Part shown: positions 6,461-14,302 of the stretch, one piece after another | Position numbering within the stretch: position 1 is the first letter of the stretch | Layout: every line of letters starts with the position of its first letter | NCBI GenBank assembly: GCA_037481775.1 | Contig: JBBFKZ010000024.1 | Coordinates: 1-21,352 of the forward strand | DNA length: 21,352 nucleotides | Direction: 5' to 3' | DNA from: Candidatus Bathyarchaeia archaeon | GTDB taxonomy: Archaea > Thermoproteota > Bathyarchaeia > Bathyarchaeales > Bathycorpusculaceae | The notes under the pieces: generated by a model | What the model was told of the DNA's origin: nothing | What the model saw: the letters and a program-made list of their open reading frames with translations, nothing else | Databases searched by the model: none | Made by a program: the position numbers and the translations under genes

Positions 6461-8047
6461 TTAGCCAAGGCAGTTTCTCAGTTTAGCGGCCTCAAGAAAT
6501 GCTTTTTTCGCTTCCTCATTTTCCCGTTCCAAGTAGGAGATCAGGAAGTTATTTGTGAAGTTTTCATGCTTTCGCTGCATCAGTGTTCTCGGGCCAATTT
6601 TAATTCCTAAGGTTTCTTCGGCGGCTTGGAGGTCCTCCATAACTTTTGCCAGACCAATCTTCAATTGCTCCGGGCTCATGCCAGTTCTTTCAGCTACTTT
6701 CACATGCATATCCATCAGTAGGTTCAAGTTTTCCCAGGAAACATAGCCACCTACAAAGCTTAAGTCATGCTTGAGCATCACATAGTGCTTCTTTACTAGC
6801 TCTAATTCCTTATCGTTTAGCAAACTCAGCGTCTTCAGTCCTATGAATTCCGGTGGCAAGCCCACGCTGTAAAGCGCTGCGGAGAAGGTAATCGCTCTTG
6901 GTAGGCACACGCCCGCCACGCACCTGCTGTAGCCGAATAGACCTATATGCAGTTTCCTTGCTCTTCTCGGAGGAACATAAGCTGCAATGCTGTTCACAAA
7001 CGGCGCCAACGCCTCAATTGTATTCTCATATTGCCGCCTAAATTTCTGAAGTGCCTCACGCAGGATCTCCTCCTCATAAAACTCGATGAGCGTGGCCTCG
7101 CCGTTTGGAAGTTTTTCGTTGAGACTTTTCACGCATGCTTTAACCTGGTCAAGCGGATAATCATATCGCAAGGCAGATTGAATTGTAACTGTTGCCAAAC
7201 CGCGATATTCCTGCAGGAAATAGTCAAGGTTTTCAGGGGACAAGTGGCCGCGGAAAGGCTTGGAGCCTACGCCGATAATTGGATGAATCTTTACCTGCAG
7301 TTCTTGCTCCACCCGCCTAAGCTTTGAGAGCGCTATTTTGGCAAGTAATACTGCGCAGGCAAGCCCGTAGTTAAGCGCTGGATCTGACCGTGCAATGAAA
7401 ACTCTCAATCGGCGGGGTTTTACAGCGTGTATGTAGGGCTTAACTATGTGGTCAATTGCTATGAGACTTTCAAAGTCTTCCACGAGGGGAATCACGTTTA
7501 TGCTCTTAGGCTTAAAAGAGCCAAGCCAATCCTCAACCTTCGTGGCGCCGTCAAGCACTATTTCGCCGTCGGCGGCAATGGACTTTTTGTAGTAGTTACT
7601 AAGCATAAGAAGCTCTTTGCTGTCGGTTGTTAGGGGCAGAATTACCTCGAATATTGGCGTCACAGCTCTATTGTAGAAGGATGAGGCTACATCGTAGGCT
7701 ACAGGGATGTTTTGGAGCGTTTCAACCGCAACTTTCCGCTCTACAACTTCAAGTTTCGGGTTTGGAATTCTGTAAGTTAGGAAAAAATCTTCGCCTAAAG
7801 TGCGCTCACGGAAAAACTCCACATTCCTATTTAACAGCTTCCTTACAACGCGTGTGTCAGCATCTTTACCTTCAGAGTCCCACATCACTTCTTGGCAACC
7901 AAGCATTGCATAAGCGAAATATGCCTCGTAAATTTCCGCATCTCCATCAATTACTTCACCATCACACCATTCTGGAACACGTGCATTGTCAGGATGCTGC
8001 GTCGCCATAGTGCGCGGTATCCTTCTCGCTTCATACTCCTCGCTCAT
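6461..8047 (-). CDS. ppcA: Archaeal-type phosphoenolpyruvate carboxylase
   Basis: IPRTMATQHPDNA, EVMWDSEGK, FLTYRIPNP, IFEVILP, VIPLVED, RVFIARSDPALNYG, GSKPFRGHL, RRARKLHIGLFGYSR, LPRAITF. Start at ATG 8047 after GGAG (alternative TTG 8062). Confidence 0.95.
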   Translation of the reverse strand: MSEEYEARRIPRTMATQHPDNARVPEWCDGEVIDGDAEIYEAYFAYAMLGCQEVMWDSEGKDADTRVVRKLLNRNVEFFRERTLGEDFFLTYRIPNPKLEVVERKVAVETLQNIPVAYDVASSFYNRAVTPIFEVILPLTTDSKELLMLSNYYKKSIAADGEIVLDGATKVEDWLGSFKPKSINVIPLVEDFESLIAIDHIVKPYIHAVKPRRLRVFIARSDPALNYGLACAVLLAKIALSKLRRVEQELQVKIHPIIGVGSKPFRGHLSPENLDYFLQEYRGLATVTIQSALRYDYPLDQVKACVKSLNEKLPNGEATLIEFYEEEILREALQKFRRQYENTIEALAPFVNSIAAYVPPRRARKLHIGLFGYSRCVAGVCLPRAITFSAALYSVGLPPEFIGLKTLSLLNDKELELVKKHYVMLKHDLSFVGGYVSWENLNLLMDMHVKVAERTGMSPEQLKIGLAKVMEDLQAAEETLGIKIGPRTLMQRKHENFTNNFLISYLERENEEAKKAFLEAAKLRNCLG

Positions 8048-8102
8048 ACAATTCTTCTCCAAATGTTGAGAGTAAAAGACTCCACTGTAATTGACTTAAG
8101 GG

Positions 8103-10430: not shown

Positions 10431-11903
10431 ATGAATGAACCGCACTTGAAAAGGAACTTGGGGCTTGTACGCACGACAATGCTGGGTGTAGGTGGCTCAC
10501 TCAGCGCAGCTAATTTTGTGATAATCGGTGAAGCCGCGGGAATGGCCGGCTACGCCATCGTCCCGATTGTCATCGTCTGCGGCATCTTAAGCCTTTTAAC
10601 AATGTTCAGTTATGCTGAGCTTGGCACGGCGATTCCGCTTGCTGGCGGCGAGTATACGTTTTCCAAAGTGGCCTACGGCGGATTCACCAGTTTCCTCACA
10701 GGCTGGTTTGAGTGGCTCAGCAACATGTTTTACACGGCGTTATCAGCCATAGGCTTCGCTTACGTTGTTTCTTACCTTTTCCCACAAATCAACATACCCT
10801 TAACCGCAGTGGTAGTGGTAGCATTTTTCGCAGTAATCAACTTGATAGGCACAAAAGAAACCGCAACAGCAGAAACCATCATAACCATCATAGTTCTCGC
10901 CATACTAGCCATATTCGTCATAGGCAGCTGGTCTTTTATTCAAGGCCCCCCCGCGGAGCAGTCAACCTCGCCGATAGGCATACTGGGCATCTTCGCTGCC
11001 ACCGCATACCTATTCGAGCTCTACCTAGGCGCAGAAGCTGTCGCGGCGGCACAAGCGGAAGTGAAAAATCCTGGAAAAAACATTCCACGCGCCATAGTGC
11101 TTTCAGCCTTGATTTTGATTGCACTGTACACAAGCGTTGTGGTTGTTGCTGTAAGCGTAGTTCCGCCAGAAGTTCTCAGTCATCAACAATCACCAATCGC
11201 GTTTGTTGCAGAACAAACCATGGGACCTGCAGGAGCAGTGCTGGTTACAATAGGCTTGGCCATTACAGGCTTAGCGGCAACCAACGAAGCAATTATGGCG
11301 CAGTCACATGTGCTTTACGCCATGAGCAGAGATGGCTACCTACCTAAAGGCCTCTGCAAAGTTCACAAGCGCTTCTGCACACCACACGTTGCGATTATTG
11401 TAGGCGCGGTTTTCACCGCAATTTTCGCCGCGACTGGCCTAGTGAATTTTGTGGTTTACGCAGTTAACCTCGGCTTTATAATAGGCTTCTCCATTGTGAA
11501 TTTGGCGGTGATTAGGCTTAGGAAACGAGCGCCGCACTTGAAAAGACCGTTCAAGACACCGCTTTATCCGCTGACGCCTATTGCGGGAATAGCGGCGTCC
11601 ATTTTTCTGATTTTCTTCATAGAACCTTCCGTTTTGATTTTGGGTTTTGAACTGGTTGTTGTCGCATTACTGATTTACTACATCAGAATGGTGGGATATC
11701 ACCGCATTCGCATAGCCTTCGGAGGAATAAGCTTGGGTTTAGGCGCTTTTGTATGCTTCACAGCGTATTTATTGGGAACAAACATTATTGTGTTGCATGG
11801 TGCTTCGCAAGAGTTGTCAACGCTCGTTTTTTCTGTACTTCTAGCAGTGGGTGCAATCCAAATTCTGGCGGGCATATTGAATCTACTTGCACCTGACCAT
11901 TAA
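10431..11903 (+). CDS. APC family amino acid permease with an extra C-terminal two-helix hairpin
   Basis: LKRNLG, SYAELGTAIPLAGGEY, EVKNPGKNIPRAI, LYAMSRDGYLP, TPHVAI, RPFKTPLYP; GGTGA SD. Confidence 0.93.
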   Translation: MNEPHLKRNLGLVRTTMLGVGGSLSAANFVIIGEAAGMAGYAIVPIVIVCGILSLLTMFSYAELGTAIPLAGGEYTFSKVAYGGFTSFLTGWFEWLSNMFYTALSAIGFAYVVSYLFPQINIPLTAVVVVAFFAVINLIGTKETATAETIITIIVLAILAIFVIGSWSFIQGPPAEQSTSPIGILGIFAATAYLFELYLGAEAVAAAQAEVKNPGKNIPRAIVLSALILIALYTSVVVVAVSVVPPEVLSHQQSPIAFVAEQTMGPAGAVLVTIGLAITGLAATNEAIMAQSHVLYAMSRDGYLPKGLCKVHKRFCTPHVAIIVGAVFTAIFAATGLVNFVVYAVNLGFIIGFSIVNLAVIRLRKRAPHLKRPFKTPLYPLTPIAGIAASIFLIFFIEPSVLILGFELVVVALLIYYIRMVGYHRIRIAFGGISLGLGAFVCFTAYLLGTNIIVLHGASQELSTLVFSVLLAVGAIQILAGILNLLAPDH

Positions 11904-12095
11904 AAAATGTCAATTCTCAGCGAACATAAACTCCTGTGTCAGCAAACCTTAATTAATGGCACCTACTGCTTTTTGGGTCGTATGCGGCGCAAACGTAAGA
12001 AATCTTATATTAACTGTGAACCTCCAACCATTGATGTAGACAACTTGGTTATTGACACTACTCGCAAAGAGCGCTTTCAAATTTTTGAAGCACTG

Positions 12096-12284
12096 GTGGC
12101 GATCCGAAAATACCTTATAGCTTTGCTCCTTTTCTCAGGTGGGTTGGCAACGATCTTTTTTATACAATTTCTAATGGACATCCAAGTATTTTCATCTCCG
12201 ACAAGCCTTGTCGCGCTGGCTGCTACGGGTGCCTTAGGCGTAGTTAACATTATTTGCGGCCTACTTTTGCTTGGTTCAGAATAG
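12096..12284 (+). CDS. Small two-TM membrane protein (62 aa), apparent paralogue of 10199..10414
   Basis: Re-started at GTG 12096 (MAIRKYL...) to match MAVRK of 10199; ends GVVNIICGLLLL. The track's 11907 start adds 63 codons over AT-rich promoter-like DNA. Confidence 0.7.
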   Translation: MAIRKYLIALLLFSGGLATIFFIQFLMDIQVFSSPTSLVALAATGALGVVNIICGLLLLGSE

Positions 12285-12370
12285 CCATCGTACTTTTCCA
12301 ACAAGCAACAAACTAGGGCGAATTTTTCTAAGAAAAGAATCTGAGGGAATGGAGCTATAAAAATTAGATC

Positions 12371-12533
12371 GCTAAGTTGAGTCTAAGCCCGAACGCATAG
12401 CATTGTCCAACCGGCTTTTAGCTAACTGCCCTATTCCTTCCATTTGATATAATCTCGTGGAAAGGACATGGACAGCCAGTTATTGCGCCAGTTATTCTTT
12501 GCTGGTGCGTTCCAGCATGCTCCCCAACTTAGC
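12371..12533 (-). ncRNA. Candidate structured non-coding RNA (~163 nt, imperfect rod)
   Basis: End-to-end nested complementarity with about eight G.U pairs on the minus strand. TATA box TTTATATG upstream (12565-12558) and U5 tract downstream (12363-12359). No convincing ORF. Confidence 0.6.
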
Positions 12534-12557
12534 AAAGATAATTTAAGTATTTTATCA

Positions 12558-12565
12558 CATATAAA
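12558..12565 (-). promoter_or_regulatory. TATA box for the candidate ncRNA
   Basis: TTTATATG lying 25-32 nt upstream of the first paired G (12533). Confidence 0.5.
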
Positions 12566-12819
12566 GTTGTTTGCACAATAGTGCAGTAAACTTAAATTAT
12601 CACCGTATAGTTTTTTGACAAAAAAGCAGAAACTGGTGCATGATGTTTTTAATTAGACGCCAAAAATGATGGAGTATATTTAAACTACAAAGTTGGAAAA
12701 AAGGCTGCAGTACTTATGGCGTTGAGTACTTTTGGGTTTATATATTGTAACGGTTAAACATATTGTCTGAATTCCAAAAGGAACAGCGCACTTTCAGCAA
12801 TGGGGTAAGGAAGTGACTG

Positions 12820-13485
12820 ATGAACAACAAGGAAAGATTTGAACAGGATTTAACTGCCTTATTGTCGCGACTCACAGCGGATGTTGAGAAAGAAGTTGCA
12901 GATAAGCTCACTTCGCTTAAGGATTGGCTGGTTAAACTTCAGATGGAAAATGTTGTTAAGATTAACCACTCTGTGATGGAGCTTGTCTGCGCCAAACATC
13001 TAATTCAGAAAGGCTATGTTGTGCAACTTGAATATCGGCTAAGCGATATCTTAACCTGCGACTTGTACTCTGTAAAGGGCTACGGCAACCTGATTGTAGA
13101 GATAGAAACTGGCTTTATTCCGCCAGAATATGCACTGTGCCCGTTAACTTACACTTCAGCACGTTTGGCCAGCAAGATAATTAGGTACAGCAGTTTCGCC
13201 GGCAAATTTGCGCTGGGCATGCCGCCGCATTACGTTTTGCCGTTTCCACGAGCATTAGCTAAGCCACCCAGAGAGAGAACTCGTGAGGAAATAGACGCCA
13301 TAAAAAGGCTCTGCGACATGTTTTATCAGAATCCTCCAGTTACAGAAGAAGAAATCTGCAATGCGCGTATACAGGAAATTTACATCATCGATGTTGATCG
13401 CGGCGAAGTTTACGAAATTGACCCGCAAGCGTATATGCGGCGTGCGGTAAGCAAGGGACTTATTTTTGATTATTCACAGCTCTAG
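12820..13485 (+). CDS. Hypothetical protein with PD-(D/E)xK-like nuclease signature
   Basis: HSVMEL..KHLIQKGYVVQLE..CDL..IVEIETG resembles the E / D / ExE arrangement of restriction-endonuclease-like folds. Confidence 0.65.
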   Translation: MNNKERFEQDLTALLSRLTADVEKEVADKLTSLKDWLVKLQMENVVKINHSVMELVCAKHLIQKGYVVQLEYRLSDILTCDLYSVKGYGNLIVEIETGFIPPEYALCPLTYTSARLASKIIRYSSFAGKFALGMPPHYVLPFPRALAKPPRERTREEIDAIKRLCDMFYQNPPVTEEEICNARIQEIYIIDVDRGEVYEIDPQAYMRRAVSKGLIFDYSQL

Positions 13486-13495
13486 CGCTCTATAG

Positions 13496-13774
13496 ATGGT
13501 GTTCCGCATGCCTTTTTATGTTTACATTCTTCTGTGTGACGACGGTAGCCTCTACACGGGACACACTAAAAACATAGACGCACGCTGGGCGCTTCATGCA
13601 AAGGGCAAGGGTGCGCGATACACGCGGATGCATAAGCCGGAACGAGTTGCTTACGTTGAACTTTTTGACAGTCGGGCGAAGGCTATGAAACGTGAAAGAG
13701 AGATAAAGAAGATGACGCGACAGCAGAAGCTGGACTTGATTAATTCAAGAAAACCAGATGAATGCCGTGTTTAG
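13496..13774 (+). CDS. GIY-YIG nuclease family protein (UPF0213/YazA-like)
   Basis: FYVYIL.C.DGSLYTG.T..R..H..GKGARYTR..AMKREREIKK. Start 13496 or 13508. Confidence 0.92.
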   Translation: MVFRMPFYVYILLCDDGSLYTGHTKNIDARWALHAKGKGARYTRMHKPERVAYVELFDSRAKAMKREREIKKMTRQQKLDLINSRKPDECRV

Positions 13775-13822: not shown

Positions 13823-14302
13823 TTGGCAGCAAAAAAGAAAAAGTCATGGGTAGAAAAACTGAACGATAGTAAAGGGCTTCCTAGGGTTGAAAAAATCACT
13901 GAAAAAATGAGTAAACGCTGGGGCATAGGTACGGTAGTTATTCCTGCGCCAATTGAAGTGGATGAGATGATGAGAAAGGTTCCCGCTGGAAAACTTGTAA
14001 CAATTAATGAGATTCGGGTTGCGCTTGCAAGGAAGCATGGCGCCACCATCGGTTGCCCGATGACGACGGGCATATTTGCGTGGGTTGCAGCACATGCGGC
14101 GGAAGAGCGGGCGCAAAGGGGAGAGAAAGATATTACGCCTTACTGGCGTACTTTGAAGGCTGGTGGAATTCTTAATGAAAAATATCCCGGGGGTGTTGAT
14201 GTTCAACGGCAACGTTTAGAACAGGAAGGGCATGTTGTAATCAGGAAGGGTAAAAAGTTCTTGGTTTTGAATTATGATAAATCGTTAGTTCAAATTGTCT
14301 GA
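13823..14302 (+). CDS. MGMT-family / alkyltransferase-like DNA-binding protein
   Basis: MRKVPAGKLVTI, TPYWRTL (PCHR position without the Cys), KYPGG..QRQRLEQEG. Confidence 0.8.
   Translation: MAAKKKKSWVEKLNDSKGLPRVEKITEKMSKRWGIGTVVIPAPIEVDEMMRKVPAGKLVTINEIRVALARKHGATIGCPMTTGIFAWVAAHAAEERAQRGEKDITPYWRTLKAGGILNEKYPGGVDVQRQRLEQEGHVVIRKGKKFLVLNYDKSLVQIV

Follow-up and report, generated by a model that had tools for sequence, protein, structure and literature searches.

A structured non-coding RNA of Bathyarchaeia, very probably founding a new family, and the predicted PD-(D/E)XK-fold protein encoded back-to-back with it

Background

Several non-coding RNA (ncRNA) genes are located beside the gene of their protein partner, as is the case for bacterial Y-RNA-like RNAs at rsr (Ro60) and for tracrRNA and omega-RNA at their nucleases. 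Among the small RNAs (sRNAs) bound by L7Ae via kink-turns (K-turns), i.e., box C/D and H/ACA sRNAs as well as RNase P RNA, the former are marked by a C box (RUGAUGA) and a D box (CUGA), and H/ACA sRNAs by a hairpin, a pocket and an ACA box together with a K-turn; the K-turn consensus comprises a C-stem, a 3-nt bulge, tandem sheared G.A/A.G pairs and an NC-stem on the bulged strand. Bathyarchaeia belong to the most abundant uncultured archaea of sediments, and to our knowledge almost nothing is known about their ncRNAs. The present study describes an ncRNA gene at positions 12359–12535 (minus strand) of a stretch of 21,352 nucleotides from Candidatus Bathyarchaeia archaeon (assembly GCA_037481775.1, contig JBBFKZ010000024.1, positions 1 to 21,352), hereafter termed the window. 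Its genome (G000) amounts to 1.82 Mb on 54 contigs and is 96.7% complete. Fold predictions with shuffled controls, a covariance model (R1) and covariation counts support the gene, which is predicted to yield a primary transcript of about 165–177 nt. The RNA very probably represents a genuine new family; the further-reaching statement that this family acts together with the nuclease-fold protein encoded back-to-back with it is regarded as evenly poised between right and wrong.

Like the partner-linked ncRNAs mentioned above, the RNA is small and structured, has paired ends and conserved internal loops, and lies beside a conserved protein gene over deep divergence. Unlike in these systems, the neighbouring protein is predicted to adopt a PD-(D/E)XK fold rather than being Ro60, Cas9, TnpB or IscB, the locus is chromosomal and single-copy without transposon or CRISPR context, the RNA displays no visible single-stranded variable segment resembling a guide, and in many genomes the protein is found in the absence of the RNA. 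With the K-turn-containing, L7Ae-binding sRNAs it shares purine-rich internal loops and, in our own reading, possible tandem G.A pairs near bulges. It differs from them in lacking C/D boxes, an ACA box, a pseudouridylation pocket and an Rfam match, and in the non-canonical placement of its bulges.

Results and discussion

Fold and strand of the RNA

The minus strand of positions 12359–12535 is predicted to fold into a single nested, long and imperfect hairpin of -77.8 kcal/mol (RNAfold), a stability reached by 0 of 200 dinucleotide shuffles (mean -47.3, z = -6.95). The plus strand of the same stretch attains -61.6 kcal/mol (z = -5.86). The strand asymmetry proposed in a preliminary description, which had been made from the letters alone, is thus borne out by RNAfold of both strands with shuffled controls. 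The minimum free energy (MFE) structure of the 177-nt transcript contains 60 pairs, 10 of which are G.U pairs, two more than the eight counted previously.

The hairpin is closed by a terminal helix (H1) formed by positions 12523–12534 (5' strand) and 12370–12381 (3' strand), corresponding to GCUAAGUUGGG (12533–12523) and CUCAACUUAGC (12381–12371). In the alignment, 99% of the cells of this helix are paired, double changes occur in 4 of 10 pairs, and the helix covaries across families. The MFE or consensus structure also holds GAACGCA/UGCGUUC, UAACUGGC/GCCGGUUG, CUGGCUGUCC/GGGCAGUUAG, UCCUUUCCA/UGGAAGGA and an apical GAU/AUC stem, so that the minus-strand sequence (12359–12566) and the helices of the preliminary description were recovered; only its short GAGC/GCUU plus CU/GG register near the base faces competition from a more stable alternative.

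Two unpaired regions stand out by conservation. An internal loop consists of AAAGAAU on the 5' side (12494–12500, minus strand; AAAGAAC in the consensus of the host's family), which is unpaired in the consensus structure, and of UGGACAAUG on the 3' side (12401–12409, minus strand), the latter belonging to a GGYUGRAC motif shared by the alignments of all types of the RNA family. The apical region GAUNNNAUCAAA (12443–12457, minus strand) contains the invariant 3-bp GAU/AUC stem with conserved flanks and recurs in homologues from another class. No open reading frame (ORF) of at least 40 aa overlaps positions 12305–12737.

Homologues and covariation

Families of genomes are denoted here by f-numbers, with f1 being the family of the window's genome, and f44 and f65 belonging to another class of the same phylum. 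BLAST revealed single copies of the RNA in 9 of 60 relatives, all from f1. In a MAFFT alignment, the promoter box described below, the 5' and 3' ends, the apical region and the T-tract are conserved, and RNAalifold predicted 57 pairs from 10 homologues, 16 of them with compensatory double changes. Using covariance model R1, the RNA was detected in 40 of 151 f1 genomes (20 of 70 genera), with one copy each. Public contigs containing an exact 20-mer from the 3' half numbered 26, and their titles name Bathyarchaeia, Bathyarchaeota or MCG throughout.

Across the 40 distinct sequences, 92.3% of the cells are standard pairs and 29 of the 57 pairs changed on both sides. None of 500 column shuffles reached any of five covariation measures, and sliding the 3' partners by 1–3 columns lowered the share of paired cells to 21–43%. 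The 40-sequence alignment was fitted to R1 and is hence biased towards the structure; the independent MAFFT/RNAalifold result nevertheless agrees. In the window's genome, R1 scores 169 bits in sense and 45 bits in antisense orientation. The covariation among homologues together with this difference corroborates the earlier proposal of a selected RNA structure on the minus strand.

Promoter, terminator and transcript ends

Upstream of the hairpin, a promoter-like element (12558–12571, minus strand) consists of an A-rich stretch resembling a B recognition element (BRE), followed by the TATA box TTTATATG (12565–12558), which is located 25–32 nt upstream of the first helix base. In all 10 homologues initially retrieved, the promoter box AACAACTTTATAT lies at the same distance. 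The upstream profile of 67 distinct members displays an A-rich peak at -40 to -35 and a T/A box at -33 to -27 relative to the helix start, and copies of the family that are unlinked to the protein gene bear the same box. Downstream, a UUUUU tract (12359–12363, minus strand), likely an archaeal termination signal, begins 8 nt past the helix; a run of at least four T is present within 30 nt past the helix in 55 of the 67 members. Both elements occupy the positions assigned to them previously, and the conserved archaeal-type promoter box and T-tract argue for an independent transcript. As archaeal promoters have a characteristic spacing between BRE/TATA and start site, the 5' end is predicted 1–3 nt before the terminal helix, and the 3' end probably lies inside the T-tract.

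Comparison with known RNAs and repeats

Searches against Rfam 15 (4227 families) yielded no match at gathering score in the whole window and only chance matches at E ≤ 10 in positions 12200–12750. The only hits of the Rfam searches, which also covered seven diverse relatives, were RUF1, a plant miRNA and wcaG, all attributed to chance, and an unrelated tRNA. None of the seven relatives matched an Rfam family, and ARAGORN detected no tRNA in the window. Genes for the RNA of the signal recognition particle (SRP; G000:C12:6-321, 158 bits) and for RNase P RNA (G000:C2:71484-71791, 192 bits) are encoded elsewhere in the genome. An identity as SRP RNA, RNase P RNA or tRNA was therefore rejected. The same applies to box C/D or H/ACA guide sRNAs: no Rfam snoRNA or sRNA family matched, the transcript is devoid of UGAUGA, and a conserved ACA past the terminal helix is missing. 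Hence, the earlier statement that the RNA is none of tRNA, SRP RNA, RNase P RNA or C/D RNA holds. Manual threading of the base loop and the GAG/GAUAAAGAC loop of the alignments onto the canonical K-turn resulted in the wrong strand order, and on manual inspection the conserved loops fitted neither a sarcin-ricin/loop E motif nor a hammerhead.

BLAST against the own 1.82-Mb genome returned one full copy, with all other matches being fragments of at most 22 nt. Most relatives likewise possess one copy per genome, the maximum being four in one genome, so that a dispersed repeat such as a miniature inverted-repeat transposable element (MITE), named earlier as a possible objection, was dismissed. 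Titles and abstracts of the papers retrieved on ncRNAs of Bathyarchaeota, on archaeal bulge-helix-bulge (BHB) and circular RNAs and on circular RNAs of Bathyarchaeia contained no account of this RNA. The structure is under selection on the minus strand, promoter and terminator are conserved, and the gene corresponds to no known RNA. It was classified as new among RNA families because no Rfam family or retrieved paper matches, the core is invariant and the neighbouring protein is uncharacterized.

Subtypes and range of the family

Relatives were sought upstream of homologues of the neighbouring protein, first by the invariant motif and then by a model (R2) covering the hairpin base only. They are present in the Bathyarchaeia families f5, f10, f11, f14, f22, f23, f25, f26 and f27. 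When run with strict filters over the class, R2 detected the RNA in 35 of 151 genomes (13 families), and a search across the phylum added 12 genomes of another class (11 of 13 in f44 and one in f65).

Family members are unbranched hairpins of 104–233 nt with ends paired in a helix of 10–12 bp. The universal core consists of this terminal helix closing a near-invariant motif (5' RAGY-ANG-CU, 3' GGCUU-AGA); a conserved GGYUGRAC-type loop or bulge is situated higher up. Most relatives are of a shorter type B (~135 nt) with asymmetric bulges. From base to tip, the terminal helix and the base motif are followed by another helix, the bulge AUGGGYYGRACAA on the 3' strand, a third helix in which (G)AYAAAGA bulges out on the 3' side, and a stem with the conserved 12-nt loop RAAACGGCKRAA. 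Compensatory changes were found in 24 of 36 predicted pairs among 14 sequences from 10 families. Some f11 genomes encode a tandem two-module RNA of 217–233 nt (L136, L140, L141, L143, L135, L142, L115), in which two copies of an inner module (stem, 12-nt loop GAAACRGCUGAA, GAYAAAGAC bulge and GGGCUGGACA) lie within one terminal helix. The version in f65 is minimal (104 nt). A GGCU(G/U)(A)GAC-like motif turns up at the base, within a bulge and again in the apical loop.

The f7 genome G052 harbours four copies on contig C1 (at ~275.5, 729.9, 740.2 and 1993.9 kb; L155–L158). Each has its own TATA-like box, the sequences of their terminal helices and their neighbours differ or are unrelated, respectively, and none lies beside the protein gene. 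In f20, where the protein is common and the RNA was otherwise undetected, a weak R2 match of 133 nt (G183:C11:6576-6708, L169; 21.7 bits) may represent a divergent member. Two R1 matches downstream of the protein gene in f21 (L093 and L109, 9–12 bits) proved to be a different, GC-rich hairpin.

The neighbouring protein P0001

The gene at positions 12820–13485 (plus strand) is oriented divergently from the RNA gene and codes for a protein of 221 aa (P0001), considered here on the basis of synteny and predicted structure. No match was obtained for P0001 in Pfam, NCBIfam or PDB (by sequence, for PDB also by profile), with no Pfam model reaching its cut-off. Weak leads were Cas4 (E 0.085), PDDEXK_9 in 1 of 58 members and a PDDEXK_14 cluster of the ESM Atlas at 0.85. 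A scan of 1.84 billion representatives recovered 226 clusters of homologues; every named homologue is a 'hypothetical protein' from Bathyarchaeia, and many are nameless in the source. Invariant in 58 diverse homologues are E71, D81, E94 and K119, and nearly so H50, E96, R115, Y123 and F130.

Proteins of the PD-(D/E)XK superfamily are marked by an alpha-beta-beta-beta-alpha-beta core whose active site holds acidic residues and a lysine. The AlphaFold model of P0001 (predicted local distance difference test, pLDDT, 89.5; predicted template modelling score, pTM, 0.86) has a core of helix, three strands, helix and strand. Its top PDB matches by Foldseek are all of the PD-(D/E)XK fold (CdiA-CT, SfsA, XisH, AF1548, Bax1, NucS, Hjc, Can2 and R2 endonuclease), albeit weak (best E 1.7e-3, template modelling score, TM, 0.2–0.35). 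Because of this uniformity, P0001 is assigned as a putative PD-(D/E)XK-fold nuclease of a new family, probably metal-dependent. The family is single-copy and occurs in 59 of the 151 genomes drawn from the whole phylum; these include families represented by complete single-contig genomes of 1.6 Mb (13 of 19 in f40 and 7 of 7 in f53), and homologues were noted in G501, G539, G553, G581, G588 and others.

P0001 is followed on the plus strand by genes for a GIY-YIG nuclease (92 aa, 13496–13774; PF01541, 3.7e-19) and for a protein of 159 aa resembling the DNA-binding domain of MGMT (13823–14302; PF01035, 7.1e-5, below the Pfam cut-off). Both adjoin P0001 in f1 loci only, and their order hints at a possible repair operon limited to this family. 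On the other side, an ORF of 125 aa (11907–12284, plus strand) converges on the RNA gene; it matches no known family, and the C-terminal half of its product is hydrophobic. It is kept beside the RNA, along with an amino-acid permease (10431–11903), in 15 of 40 close loci. The content of the window is archaeal, as exemplified by an archaeal-type phosphoenolpyruvate carboxylase (6461–8062).

Linkage of RNA and protein

In 36 of the 40 close loci, the RNA gene is oriented divergently from the ~221-aa ORF at a distance of ~280 bp; one of the four exceptions is truncated by a contig end. The adjacency extends from f1 to at least nine further Bathyarchaeia families, namely those listed above, in which the other neighbours of the f1 loci are not conserved. 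In the other class, divergent adjacency was observed in all six loci examined, with a spacing of ~140 bp and a protein 48–53% identical. The protein is encoded in 39 of 40 RNA-positive f1 genomes and in 32 of 35 RNA-positive genomes of the class, versus 207 of 401 genomes overall. Outside f1, 31 of 51 examined protein loci have the RNA next door, a figure biased by the choice of loci.

The base motif and its two registers

The base motif directly follows the terminal helix, its 5' half (12514–12522, minus strand) reading GAGC-AUG-CU (family consensus RAGY-ANG-CU) and its 3' half (12382–12389, minus strand) GGCUU-AGA, which forms invariant columns of the alignments. In a set of 66 distinct members, the 5' half opens with GAGC (32), AAGC (21), GAGU (5), AAGU (5), GGGC (2) or GGGU (1), and the three bases after these conform to A-N-G in 65. 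GCUU is present in all 66 and AGA in 60, the remainder having UGA, AGG, AGU, CGA or CGG. In 20 sequences from 8 families, GGCUUAGA is invariant.

This motif can be paired in two registers. In the RNAalifold register, A-N-G-C-U is joined to GGCUU, with RAGY/AGA remaining as a 4x3 internal loop in which purine-purine pairs could form. The second pair of this register (N with U) is non-standard in 18 of 40 sequences. In the register of the preliminary description, RAGY forms a helix with GCUU, and ANG and AGA protrude from opposite strands as 3-nt bulges. Of the two, the RNAalifold register has the lower free energy in 65 of 66 members, the median difference being 5.85 kcal/mol.

Elsewhere in the host genome, the 16S rRNA gene (G000:C10, 9418–10912, minus strand; the 23S rRNA gene is located on a separate contig) is flanked by the hBHBh' stem UUCUCC-CUCC-[AAA]-UCCAAC with GUUGGA-GGAG-[CAA]-GGAGAA, its strands lying 84 nt ahead of and 24 nt beyond the mature ends. 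A stretch resembling the base motif (G000:C38:696-886, minus strand; GAGC-AAG ... GCUU-AGA with an 8-bp helix) is probably due to chance, as it is located inside coding-like sequence and lacks a promoter box.

Interpretation

The favoured interpretation is that of a stable, protein-binding small RNA, whose conserved purine-rich loops (base motif and GGYUGRAC loop or bulge) may serve as recognition sites. The RNA would act together with the divergently encoded PD-(D/E)XK-fold protein, possibly as its cofactor or scaffold, as a regulator, inhibitor or decoy, or as a dedicated substrate. Whether such a functional tie to the back-to-back protein exists is, in our estimate, about an even call. Several observations weigh against it. 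Bona fide copies unlinked to the protein gene exist in f7, f21, f24 and f15, where they adjoin genes for an MFS transporter, an AIR-synthase-like protein, UbiA, TrmB, Lrp/AsnC and other unrelated genes, and ten f1 genomes possess the protein without adjacent RNA. One copy beside the protein gene (L086; G412:C4, 2182–2360) gives the impression of a decayed gene: its 3' half (GGCUUAGACUCAACUUGG) is kept, its complementary 5' end lost. Across the phylum, the protein has a far wider distribution than the RNA. No RNA of the family was found upstream of the protein in 16 loci from seven other families, and the RNA was detected in only 1 of 27 and 0 of 2 f24 genomes searched, though 63 of 71 f24 genomes encode the protein. 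Furthermore, one batch of 20 upstream regions was drawn mostly from families in which adjacency had already been seen, and the co-occurrence counts overstate the link because related genomes are not independent. Finally, any RNA binding by P0001 is hypothetical, its fold matches are weak (E 1.7e-3 and higher), and transcription, transcript ends and abundance are predictions.

One alternative, which is compatible with either a stand-alone or a partnered function, views the base as an hBHBh' site for the splicing endonuclease, with each bulge 3' of its strand of the central helix, where the ~134-nt body would be excised and circularized and the terminal helix would act as processing stem. PMC4090602 defines a BHB splice site by a central helix of 4 bp with one 3-nt bulge at each end, and this is exactly the geometry of the previously described base register, as in tRNA introns. 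In all 66 members the four central pairs can form and both bulges measure 3 nt, with pair-preserving changes only (R14, A/G opposite U; Y17, C/U opposite G), and in one divergent member the first central pair is a compensatory U-A. The base in the middle of the 5' bulge is free to vary, at the very position left unpaired in 18 of 40 sequences in the competing register. The canonical BHBs of the host genome (tRNA-Trp and tRNA-Leu introns, 16S processing stem) have flanking helices down to 2–3 bp. The excised piece would form a closed rod, its end being made by the RNAalifold register with a UUAG loop, and such closure of the circle by alternative pairing after excision could explain why both registers are conserved. 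Circularization of rRNA in Bathyarchaeia has been reported from metatranscriptomes (PMC12918454). On the other hand, the BHB fold is the less stable one in 65 of 66 members (by up to 12.6 kcal/mol, the range starting at 0), always requires an extra 1-nt bulge and does not accommodate the U-to-C change at position 22 in two members, which suits the RNAalifold register. Moreover, the new motif is sequence-invariant, as the genuine BHBs of this genome are not, and the body differs from those of the BHB-flanked archaeal RNAs (16S and 23S stems, tRNA introns, permuted SRP RNA) in being neither rRNA, tRNA, SRP nor C/D RNA, although a helix likewise flanks the possible site. The bare pattern is common by chance: a genome-wide scan (outer helix of at least 8) gave 2236 matches, about chance level, and is therefore uninformative. 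Taken together, excision at a BHB site appears rather doubtful. The boldest combination, a ~130-nt circular rod excised at the base by the tRNA-splicing endonuclease and serving as dedicated subunit or regulator of the PD-(D/E)XK nuclease, i.e., a new archaeal ribonucleoprotein of Bathyarchaeia and a sister class, would be a long shot.

Somewhat more credible, though still the less probable option, is a stand-alone ncRNA whose function is unrelated to the neighbour and which may act as scaffold or sponge for another RNA-binding protein (via tandem G.A-type loops and GGCUGRAC-like repeats), with the adjacency reflecting inherited gene order under a shared divergent promoter region. The unlinked copies with promoter boxes of their own (up to four per genome) and the frequent occurrence of the protein without the RNA agree with it, as does the recurrence of the GGCU(G/U)(A)GAC-like motif, which a set of repeated binding sites would be expected to show. 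It accounts less well for an adjacency that persists in at least 10 Bathyarchaeia families and a second class while other neighbours change, and for the near-constant presence of the protein in RNA-positive genomes; no candidate for an alternative partner was identified, and the loops misfit the canonical K-turn in our own reading of the alignments. The likeness to bacterial 6S RNA (RF00013) drawn in the preliminary description, by which a rod with bubbles would mimic open promoter DNA and sequester RNA polymerase, does not extend beyond comparable length and a small, abundant-type, unbranched and largely double-stranded shape. Bacterial 6S RNA is defined by a large single-stranded central bubble between long irregular helices, and it binds RNA polymerase holoenzyme and templates product RNAs. 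In the present RNA, a large central bubble is missing: the conserved loops are 4x3 (base) and about 5x5 (middle), followed by a small apical hairpin. Most relatives are hairpins of ~135 nt whose bulges are asymmetric and whose apical loop spans 12 nt; some others are tandem two-module RNAs of ~230 nt. The 6S model matched neither in the window at gathering score nor in 12200–12750 at E ≤ 10. In addition, the patchy range (35 of 151 class genomes) and the sometimes multiple copies (up to four) are unlike a general transcription regulator, and the strongest genomic association is with the gene for the nuclease-fold protein, none with polymerase or other transcription genes having been seen. An archaeal 6S analogue is thus highly improbable. 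That the element is no RNA gene at all but a MITE or DNA palindrome in decay, a terminator acting in both directions or an intergenic regulatory site at the DNA level, could be read from its location between convergent and divergent genes and from the T-tract at its end. This reading is essentially refuted by the covariation and the strand asymmetry, with strand-specific G.U pairs, compensatory changes and a sense score far above the antisense score; the single copy, the promoter box at fixed distance and the class-level conservation likewise oppose it.

Conclusions

The RNA described here and its uncharacterized, predicted nuclease-fold neighbour constitute a concrete and testable pair, and the P0001 family is a widespread uncharacterized archaeal protein in its own right. 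The new family model could enter RNA databases and improve the annotation of archaeal metagenome-assembled genomes. If the RNA turned out to serve a PD-(D/E)XK nuclease as cofactor or to regulate it, or to be a circular RNA derived from a BHB site, the few known classes of archaeal ribonucleoproteins would gain a new one.

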